A stretch of 64,000 nt of DNA from Candidatus Syntropharchaeum sp. (GTDB taxonomy: Archaea > Halobacteriota > Syntropharchaeia > Syntropharchaeales > Syntropharchaeaceae): NCBI GenBank assembly GCA_026134025.1, contig JAOQII010000005.1:594-64593 (forward strand), in the 5' to 3' direction. The notes under the pieces were generated by a model. The model saw nothing but the letters and a program-made list of their open reading frames with translations. It made no database searches and had not been told where the DNA came from. Shown piece by piece: positions 28,013 through 29,677 of the stretch. Position 1 is the first letter of the stretch. Each line of letters begins with the position of its first letter. The position numbers and the translations under genes were made by a program.

Positions 28013-29677
28013 ATGCCAAAAAAATCGATCGAGATCATAAAGGAGACGTTCAAGGAGGATGATGCAACCCGCGAACGTACATCATTCTATGAGTTTGGAG
28101 GGTGGAGGCAATCACGGCGTAAGCAGGAGTATGTCAAGCTTGCAAAGGATCTAATCGAAGAGCGAGGACTCACCGGTTATCAGGGAGATCGAGAGGATAT
28201 GGGCGTGCCACTGGGCCAGCGGTTCATCGAGCCATACTACATCTCGGGAACAGATGTTTTATGTGATGGTGAGGATCTCCACCAGGTCAACAACGCGGCG
28301 ATCCAGCAGATGGGTGATGATATCAAGCGGACCGCGATCTCAGGGCTTGATATGACACACAGGATGCTTGAAGTCAGGATCGGAGCTACAGTGACGCCAG
28401 AGACGATAAACAGGTATCTTGAGGTTGCAAATCACACGATCGTCGGTGGTGCAGTTGCACAGGAGCACATGGCAGAGATCAACCCTGCGATGACCCGGGA
28501 TGGATCTGTGAAGATCATGAGCGGGAATGAGGAACTCATGTCGCACATCGATAAACAGTACATCATCGATATAAACAGGGAATATCCAGCCAATCAGGCA
28601 GAAGCGTTGAAAGAGGGGATCGGAAAATCGATATATCAGGTTGTTAGAGTCCCGACTGTTGCTGTTAGAAACGCAGATGGCGGGACAACACATAGATGGG
28701 CTGCAAACCAGTGCACGCTCGGCTTTATAACCGCGTACGCGCTGGGTGGCGGGTCAATCCTTGCTGATTTCTCATTAACCTCAAAGCACATGCAGTATGT
28801 CACGCTCGGAACACCCACGTGGCCCAGACGGGGTCCAAGAGGTAAGAATGAACCTGGAGGCATTCCCTATGGGTATGTTGGGGACTTCTGCCAGGCCGAT
28901 GCTGCAGGTTCTGATGAGATCACATATTTCTGTGAGTCGATGGCACTCTCAAACTTCCTCTACCTCAATCTCTGGGTCAATGGGTATGTGATCGGTGGGA
29001 TAGGTGGTGTGCACGCCGGGGCTGTTTTATTCACGAACAACGTACTTGATGAGCTTGCAGGACACATCACAGACTGGATCGTGGATCGCTATGGTGGACT
29101 GGCAAAGGCCAAGCCGTCATTTGATGTGATAAGAGACGTCTGTCATGAGGCATGCTTCCATCTCCTGGAGGAATATAATCGGTATCCACTCCTTTTAGAG
29201 CACCACTGGGGAGGAGCGATACGGATGTTCATCCTTTCCACATTGGGTGGGATGGCTCCTTCGTTTGCAACAGGGCACTCGCTCGCCGGGATGATCGGCT
29301 ACCACTATACAGGTGGGTATCTCATGAAGGAAGCATGGGGCAGGGGGTCGTTCGGCTCACAGGACTCGGTGGATCACATGAACCTCGCCTACGCAGCTTC
29401 AATGGTACCTGATGAGGGACTTCTTCCCGAGTTGAGAGGACCAAACTTCTCAAGTGACTCGACAAATGCGATTGTCCAGTGCACAAGCCCATCGTACGCC
29501 GTGGCAGCCCACGCAGCTCGAAAGGATGCATGGTGTTTGAGTCCAGTGGTTAAAGTGGCATTCGCAGACTCAAAGCTACCATTTAATTTCAAAGAGGTTC
29601 GCAAGGAGATCGCACGTGGCACCCAGCATGAGTTTATGCCAGAGGGTGATCGCGACCCGATAAAACCAGGGAGGTGA
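28013..29677 (+). CDS. mcrA: methyl/alkyl-coenzyme M reductase alpha subunit, divergent
   Basis: 554 aa, collinear with McrA throughout (FYEFGGWRQSRRKQEY…, VAQEHM retaining the axial Gln, GKNEPGGIPYGY, PELRGPNF, VKVAFAD). The canonical [11 protein letters not shown] segment is replaced by SFGSQDSVDHM. Confidence 0.85.
   Translation: MPKKSIEIIKETFKEDDATRERTSFYEFGGWRQSRRKQEYVKLAKDLIEERGLTGYQGDREDMGVPLGQRFIEPYYISGTDVLCDGEDLHQVNNAAIQQMGDDIKRTAISGLDMTHRMLEVRIGATVTPETINRYLEVANHTIVGGAVAQEHMAEINPAMTRDGSVKIMSGNEELMSHIDKQYIIDINREYPANQAEALKEGIGKSIYQVVRVPTVAVRNADGGTTHRWAANQCTLGFITAYALGGGSILADFSLTSKHMQYVTLGTPTWPRRGPRGKNEPGGIPYGYVGDFCQADAAGSDEITYFCESMALSNFLYLNLWVNGYVIGGIGGVHAGAVLFTNNVLDELAGHITDWIVDRYGGLAKAKPSFDVIRDVCHEACFHLLEEYNRYPLLLEHHWGGAIRMFILSTLGGMAPSFATGHSLAGMIGYHYTGGYLMKEAWGRGSFGSQDSVDHMNLAYAASMVPDEGLLPELRGPNFSSDSTNAIVQCTSPSYAVAAHAARKDAWCLSPVVKVAFADSKLPFNFKEVRKEIARGTQHEFMPEGDRDPIKPGR

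Follow-up and report, generated by a model that had tools for sequence, protein, structure and literature searches.

The window analysed here is a stretch of 64,000 nucleotides (64 kb) from contig JAOQII010000005.1 of a Candidatus (Ca.) Syntrophoarchaeum sp. assembly, and the subject of this report is an operon in it with the three genes acrB, acrA and acrG, in particular acrA. Their products match the beta, alpha and gamma subunits of methyl-coenzyme M reductase (MCR) as follows:

26675..28009, plus strand: acrB, beta subunit, 444 amino acids, Pfam MCR_beta_N and MCR_beta (PF02783/PF02241)
28013..29677, plus strand: acrA, alpha subunit, 554 amino acids, Pfam MCR_alpha_N and MCR_alpha (PF02745 and PF02249)
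29682..30437, plus strand: acrG, gamma subunit, 251 amino acids, Pfam MCR_gamma (PF02240)

The genes are arranged in the order B-A-G, all on the plus strand, with gaps of 3-4 nucleotides. Pfam scans detected neither mcrC nor mcrD in the 64-kb window, and a motif scan found no second McrA in it. Canonical MCR operons, in contrast, have the order BDCGA and include mcrC and mcrD.

AcrA is 100% identical to the GenBank protein MCW7076082.1 on a 66.8-kb contig of a metagenome-assembled genome (MAG) of Ca. Syntrophoarchaeum sp. Cluster look-ups gave 86% identity to OFV66176.1 of Ca. S. butanivorans and 76% to OFV68281.1 of Ca. S. caldarius. The AcrAs of Ca. Alkanophaga share about 60% with it, and two paralogs, OFV65745.1 and OFV67100.1, share 56-59%. 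The top matches (86-56%) thus belong to Ca. Syntrophoarchaeum and Ca. Alkanophaga, with no canonical McrA above about 45-46%. When compared with PDB chains by phmmer, AcrA matched the solved MCRs with an E value of about 1e-150 and about 45% identity. The scores with the NCBIfam models for the alpha subunit (TIGR03256, 563.8) and the beta subunit (TIGR03257, 444.5) both remained under the equivalog cut-offs of 767.75 and 516.25, respectively. Laso-Perez et al. reportedly described four alkyl-coenzyme M reductase (ACR) paralogs of Ca. S. butanivorans in 2016. Ca. Syntrophoarchaeum is an oxidiser of butane and propane with four divergent MCR homologs, for which formation of butyl-coenzyme M is documented at the culture level (PMC9118554; PMC9081873). 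Judged by these sequence comparisons, 28013-29677 is the alpha subunit of an ACR and is orthologous, at the species level, to one of the four paralogs already published. It is not a new enzyme type, because it matches MCW7076082.1 completely and has an 86% identical ortholog, OFV66176.1, which is a published paralog. The N- and C-terminal MCR alpha domains occur with beta and gamma subunits alongside, the AcrAs of cultured non-methane alkane oxidisers are the closest relatives, and the ligand anchors are kept, all of which characterises an ACR. An earlier note on this DNA had rightly read the gene as one for an enzyme using the nickel cofactor F430, but had not recognised it as a Ca. Syntrophoarchaeum ACR, a family known from the literature since 2016. 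Assignment to a canonical MCR II-like enzyme (best PDB match 5A8R) was rejected in view of the set of active-site residues, the gene order in the operon and the scores below the NCBIfam cut-offs.

Two further AcrA paralogs, MCW7076051.1 and MCW7076922.1, share the GenBank accession series and the organism label of the window protein. The first of them, MCW7076051.1 (P0270), corresponds to S. butanivorans OFV65760.1, keeps the glycine at position 445 discussed below and probably comes from the same MAG as the window protein, and MCW7076922.1 (P0283) corresponds to OFV65745.1 and has an isoleucine at this position. With these two paralogs beside the window AcrA, the MAG would therefore have at least three ACR alpha genes.

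The feature which had attracted attention in the earlier note is a segment in which canonical McrA carries several modified residues:

29330..29400, plus strand: remodelled segment E440-S463 of AcrA, EAWGRGSFGSQDSVDHMNLAYAAS, with F447, G448, S449, D451, D454 and M456

Numbering of canonical positions refers to M. marburgensis McrA (PDB 3POT chain A), the sequence of which was taken from the HMMER alignment. The register was examined by phmmer against PDB chains, by MAFFT with 120 homologs, by MAFFT L-INS-i with clade representatives, and by hhalign, where a profile of 21 clade members was aligned with a profile of 16 canonical McrAs. In these four independent alignments residues 440-463 of the window protein pair gap-free with residues 436-459 of M. 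marburgensis McrA. The register is anchored by the conserved K435/E436 and R440 before the segment core, by D447 and D450 within it, and by DEGxxxELRGPN after it, which agrees with the earlier statement that the flanking blocks align well. Phenylalanine 443 (F447 in the window protein), aspartate 447 (D451) and aspartate 450 (D454) are kept, and the changed residues are tyrosine 444 (now G448), the thioglycine residue G445 (now S449), tyrosine 446 (now Q450) and the S-methylcysteine residue C452 (now M456). The thioglycine and S-methylcysteine residues are indeed missing, as had been claimed; the position of didehydroaspartate, which had been counted among the losses, is however retained as D454. 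Classification as a thioglycine-bearing MCR or ACR was accordingly discarded, with Ser449 standing at the G445 position in a gap-free alignment.

A canonical GFYGYD...C motif could be hidden at this place by a frameshift, a chimeric assembly or a misset register, and the earlier note had named recovery of the motif as what would overturn its claim. In a six-frame translation of 29250-29480 the YGYD..C motif occurred in none of the other five frames, and a motif scan did not find it anywhere in the window. Neither did hhalign bring it back, and the alignment to M. marburgensis McrA contains no indel between the anchors on both sides. The segment recurs in independent NCBI, ENA and JGI assemblies; at L001, which derives from a separate NCBI assembly, the 86% identical ortholog has the same segment save for M456L. 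Comparison of the window acrA with this ortholog by the method of Nei and Gojobori yielded a ratio of nonsynonymous to synonymous substitutions (dN/dS) of 0.064 for the whole gene, and a dN of 0.055 versus a dS of 1.09 for residues 431-475. Since the same segment is found in an ortholog from an independent assembly and is under purifying selection, a sequencing or frameshift artefact is excluded, and a canonical motif concealed in any of these ways has next to no probability. The remodelled segment is real and is maintained by purifying selection.

Besides this segment, AcrA displays the following active-site and modification sites, as located in the alignments:

28460..28462, plus strand: codon of Q150, corresponding to Q147, the lower axial ligand of F430, in the context VAQEHM, invariant in 21 of 21 clade members
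28742..28768, plus strand: loop LGGGSILAD, residues 244-252, with a one-residue deletion versus the canonical loop 239-246 (hhalign and MAFFT)
28787..28831, plus strand: H259 (H257, the N1-methylhistidine) to R273 (R271, the 5-methylarginine), both kept
29006..29017, plus strand: G332-V-H-A335 in place of F330-T-Q-Y333, two pocket aromatics lost
29219..29221, plus strand: I403 in place of Q400, the 2-methylglutamine site

The axial glutamine in VAQEHM near residue 150 is therefore retained as had been stated. Likewise retained are K258/H259 and R272/R273, which equal the canonical K256/H257 and R270/R271. In the beta subunit, as compared with 3pot_B, tyrosine 367 is kept, and phenylalanine 361 is changed to tryptophan, phenylalanine 362 to leucine and isoleucine 366 to serine. 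In the gamma subunit, as compared with 3pot_C, arginine 120 and histidine 156 are kept, and leucine 117 is changed to tyrosine and histidine 158 to serine. The retained axial glutamine, K256/H257, R270/R271, beta-Y367 and gamma-R120 are the residues that hold F430, the phosphate of coenzyme B (CoB) and the sulfonate of coenzyme M (CoM). Both hhalign and MAFFT place the loop gap at AYALGGG-SILADF as opposed to the canonical AYKQAAGEAATGDF. Overall, the window AcrA shares with canonical MCR (M. marburgensis MCR I/II; 3POT, 5A8R) the fold family, the axial glutamine, H257, R271, D450, beta-Y367 and gamma-R120, but lacks all six of F330, Y333, Q400, Y444, G445 and C452 and has the loop deletion in addition.

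Changes of this kind have been described before. Lemaire and Wagner noted replacement of glutamine 400 by isoleucine, histidine or glutamate in ACRs and many substitutions at the coenzyme sites of Syntrophoarchaeum ACRs, as well as a deletion in loop 239-246 in some ACRs of Syntrophoarchaeum and Methanoliparia, which has been linked to ACRs for larger alkanes and which, in AlphaFold models, opens a cleft connecting the CoM site with the solvent (PMC9118554). Substitutions of aromatic by small residues have been proposed to fit longer alkanes (Adam et al., PMC9635834), and a wider catalytic cleft has been invoked for Acrs acting on alkanes of three or more carbons (C3+; Zehnle et al., PMC10322722). 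Such an exchange of large aromatics for smaller residues (PMC9635834) is observed here with F330G, Y333A and Y444G in alpha, together with F362L and I366S in beta. Together with Q400I and the loop deletion these changes bear out the remodelled substrate channel proposed in the earlier note.

The ethyl-CoM reductase (ECR) of Ca. Ethanoperedens thermophilum (7B1S) resembles the window enzyme in being an ACR for a non-methane alkane and in having Cys452 replaced, by glutamine in its case. It differs by the motif LGFYGHD with thioglycine, LGFYGHDLQDQQ, by a methionine as axial ligand, by the presence of Tyr333, and by a length of 595 amino acids with large insertions forming a gas tunnel. The window AcrA with its 554 amino acids has no such insertions, does not keep the thioglycine motif and has 7B1S as its weakest PDB match (E value 2e-95), and assignment as an ECR was rejected on these grounds.

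To place these changes among related proteins, thirteen functionally annotated positions (147, 257, 271, 330, 333, 400, 443, 444, 445, 447, 450, 452 and 481) were scored in 130 full-length homologs. Canonical McrAs (84/84) read Q-H-R-F-Y-Q-F-Y-G-D-D-C-N; the set that marks membership, F330, Y333 and F443-Y444-G445-Y/F446-D447 with Cys (or Ala/Met) at 452, is likewise found in 84/84. The window AcrA reads Q-H-R-G-A-I-F-G-S-D-D-M-N. Methionine at 452 is seen also in otherwise canonical korarchaeal McrAs. In the subfamily to which the window protein belongs, the acrBAG subfamily, the gene order acrB-acrA-acrG is common to the loci L001, L002, L003, L010, L013, L015 and L018. All 21 clade members have glycine at position 444 (G448), and position 445 is occupied by serine, isoleucine, valine, alanine, glutamine or glycine. 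In other ACR clades Gly445 is present, within the motifs WGGQE and WAGFE. As judged from the residues scored, the remodelling is a conserved trait of the clade, and it is visible in published alignments.

Within the subfamily, S. butanivorans OFV66176.1 comes closest, with the same operon order, a full-length match over 554 amino acids, G330, A333, I400, G444 and S445; it derives from a different species-level genome and shows M456L. OFV68281.1 of S. caldarius (P0279) shares G330, A333 and G444, but has Gly445 (FGGQD) and Gln400, whereas the window (P0001) and S. butanivorans (P0229) orthologs have Ser445 and Ile400. Two modification positions thus toggle inside one ortholog group. Ca. Alkanophaga MDF2955404.1 and MDF2957193.1 (about 60% identity) resemble the window protein in the acrBAG operon, in FGSGD with Ser445, in Ile400 and in the loop deletion; their host differs by oxidising C5-C14 alkanes at 70 °C (PMC10322722).

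Two side observations were made among these homologs. Locus L005 (7617-16184) contains two stand-alone acrA genes of 558 and 607 amino acids, about 2.7 kb apart, beside a gene like Prismane or carbon monoxide dehydrogenase (CODH) and with no acrB or acrG nearby; the 558-amino acid AcrA is of the WGGQE type with Gly445 retained. An otherwise canonical McrA of 597 amino acids (P0077) shows an internal duplication, in which PDB residues of about 179-222 are matched twice, and which is probably an artefact of an ENA metagenome assembly.

The role of the MCR thioglycine is still debated. In the MCRs of methanogens, three modifications have been described as strictly conserved, and thioglycine is among them (PMC9081873). 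Out of six classical positions of post-translational modifications (PTMs), the window AcrA has lost three (G445, C452 and Q400) and kept three (H257, R271 and D450), so that the loss of the canonical PTM set which had been postulated applies to the former half and does not extend to the latter. Because G445S, C452M and Q400I are encoded in the gene, thioglycine, S-methylcysteine and 2-methylglutamine are impossible at their canonical positions, and N1-methylhistidine, 5-methylarginine and didehydroaspartate may still be carried. M. acetivorans strains without thioglycine, methylarginine and S-methylcysteine are viable and the structure of their MCR is unchanged (PMC9081873). By analogy, an MCR-type enzyme working without these PTMs would be consistent with this viable triple mutant.

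Genes for the maturation of the modified residues were also looked for. Pfam and NCBIfam scans of the about 50 open reading frames (ORFs) in the window detected no YcaO, no TfuA and no Mmp10-type B12 radical S-adenosylmethionine (SAM) protein. No ycaO was found near related acr clusters in the Pfam annotations of 17 related loci, and tblastn searches with YcaO fragments from M. jannaschii MJ1094 (134 amino acids) and M. kandleri gave no credible match in the window and 18 related acr loci (295 kb), the related loci covering only about 10 kb on either side of the acr genes. The observation that mmp10, ycaO and tfuA are not seen nearby, brought forward earlier as consistent with the loss of modifications, is hence true for the 64 kb but says little, because the 18 related loci are likewise without them and MCW7076051.1 keeps Gly445. 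A published figure shows ycaO in the vicinity of an acr cluster of Ca. Alkanophaga (PMC10322722), and no open-access text pairing Syntrophoarchaeum with tfuA was found. A class I methyltransferase at 54858-55643 was considered as a linked PTM gene and dismissed, being a generic UbiE/CpaM-like protein 25 kb away.

As a separate observation, locus L010 (8068-13951), with a layout shared by L011 and L012, represents a related acrBAG clade (P0013, 51% identity) in which the operon has flanking genes of the type found in F430 biosynthesis (CbiX, Oxidored_nitro, CbiA-like). A B12-binding radical SAM protein of 513 amino acids directly follows this operon and is a candidate ACR-modifying methylase.

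The invariant Gly448 raises the question of whether the thioamide has moved. In such a scenario, Gly448 at position 444 would be the target of YcaO/TfuA, or the loop would be re-registered so that G448 fills the thioglycine site. The contrast between this glycine, present in 21/21 clade members, and the neighbouring residue 449, which varies between S, G, I, V, A and Q, would fit, and since MCW7076051.1 keeps Gly445 the machinery for thioamidation may still exist in the organism; the ycaO drawn near the Ca. Alkanophaga acr cluster points in the same direction. However, the hhalign alignment is gap-free between R440 and D447 and a shift would need compensating indels, no ycaO occurs in the window or the 18 related loci, and a gain of space in the pocket where canonical McrA has Tyr444 would explain an invariant glycine equally well. 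A relocated thioamide is therefore considered improbable.

A wider proposal includes this one, namely that the acrBAG subfamily comprises F430 enzymes without the canonical thioamide which carry something undescribed, be it a thioamide on Gly448, new modifications of Met456 or Ser449, or a modified F430. For the last option Q400 to isoleucine may provide the fit, in analogy to Q400 to valine and methylthio-F430 in the anaerobic methanotrophic archaea ANME-1. If it were true, the toggling of serine/glycine at 445 and isoleucine/glutamine at 400 between orthologs would distinguish two states of a single enzyme that differ in PTMs or cofactor. This proposal is rated as rather unlikely.

Very probably, the gene encodes the AcrA of an ACR in a Ca. 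Syntrophoarchaeum acrBAG operon, with a remodelled pocket and with three PTM sites replaced by encoded residues. It looks like a subunit of a functional F430 enzyme, as the earlier note had argued, given the axial glutamine, the ligand anchors R270, K256/H257, beta-Y367 and gamma-R120, the tight operon, and a dN/dS of 0.06. By homology, an alpha2-beta2-gamma2 enzyme is expected to bind F430 (via axial Q150), CoM and CoB and would catalyse the reaction alkane + CoM-S-S-CoB -> alkyl-S-CoM + HS-CoB, with which the anaerobic oxidation of non-methane alkanes begins. Candidate substrates are propane or butane, as known for the genus Syntrophoarchaeum. The aromatic cage of the methane-converting MCR would be turned into small residues by the substitutions in alpha (F330G, Y333A, Y444G and Q400I) and beta (F362L and I366S), and the pocket is expected to become larger or more open through the one-residue loss in loop 239-246.

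Some points speak against an ACR with these properties. Alpha-Tyr333 is regarded as catalytically important in MCR, and the window AcrA has alanine at this position. An AlphaFold2 monomer model calculated from the 21-sequence clade alignment had a mean predicted local distance difference test (pLDDT) score of 60, with residues 439-470 below 50, and the pocket geometry is not readable from it. In Alkanophaga, a strongly expressed acrA lies apart from acrB and acrG, and expression of the two remaining Acrs is weak (PMC10322722); the homolog that corresponds to the window AcrA occurs in an intact acrBAG operon, unlike the strongly expressed split acrA, and therefore probably belongs to the weakly expressed pair.

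Such points could be accommodated by a degenerate or non-catalytic paralog, a duplicated MCR copy whose role would be structural or regulatory, if it had one. Loss of Tyr333 and thioglycine, and the probable place of the Alkanophaga homologs among the weakly expressed Acrs (PMC10322722), would agree with this, as would the fact that the most expressed of the four Syntrophoarchaeum paralogs is a different one, OFV67021.1 of S. butanivorans (PMC9118554). However, most of the four paralogs are highly abundant by transcriptomics and proteomics (PMC9118554), and other ACR clades, including that of S. butanivorans OFV65760.1, are without Tyr333 as well. A whole-gene dN/dS of 0.064 with a conserved active-site segment, the axial glutamine and the CoM and CoB anchors kept across all three subunits, and an intact three-gene operon conserved across genera are likewise hard to reconcile with degeneration, which is thus deemed quite improbable.

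The enzyme family, its paralogy, the pocket substitutions and the loop deletion are already published. No explicit statement was found in the open-access literature that Gly445 is missing in ACRs of Syntrophoarchaeum and Alkanophaga, and its absence, together with the natural toggle between serine and glycine among orthologs, is a modest addition. The existence of an ACR subfamily under selection with serine, isoleucine, valine or alanine at position 445 suggests that an enzyme using F430, CoM and CoB can probably dispense with thioglycine. For heterologous expression of ACRs this would mean that the window paralog should be independent of YcaO/TfuA, of McmA and of the glutamine methylase, and may still require the histidine and arginine methylases. 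A natural pair for comparison is already available in the orthologs of S. caldarius and of the S. butanivorans type, which differ by Ser/Gly445 and Ile/Gln400.

Three further genes are located directly upstream of acrB:

24454-26596, plus strand: RibD_C-type pyrimidine reductase, archaeoflavoprotein AfpA, and a radical SAM protein of 296 amino acids

The AfpA call rests on a TIGR02699 score above the cut-off, and the radical SAM protein is NifB-like (TIGR01290 377.8 versus an equivalog cut-off of 343.65), with no nifHDK in the window. The RibD_C, AfpA and NifB neighbours are missing at the orthologous locus L001, and TldD/PmbA is found upstream of acr there, which is also what distinguishes the surroundings of S. 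butanivorans OFV66176.1 from those of the window genes. Because this neighbour is not conserved next to the ortholog, the NifB-like gene was dropped as a candidate acr-linked gene and is regarded as not linked to the ACR.

On the other side of the operon, at 30441-34541 on the minus strand, a DUF362 protein with two 4Fe-4S motifs is encoded convergent with acrG, together with ORFs of 80, 208, 390 and 319 amino acids which, judged from their translations, resemble a four-subunit 2-oxoacid:ferredoxin oxidoreductase. A CODH/acetyl-CoA synthase (ACS) cluster at 921-7079 on the minus strand contains CdhD, CdhC/ACS beta, epsilon and a Prismane-type alpha subunit. This cluster is consistent with an alkane oxidiser using the Wood-Ljungdahl pathway, and together with the archaeal housekeeping genes in the window it fits Ca. 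Syntrophoarchaeum. At 13400-14332 on the minus strand, an ORF of 310 amino acids encodes an rve-family integrase or transposase and is probably an insertion element.

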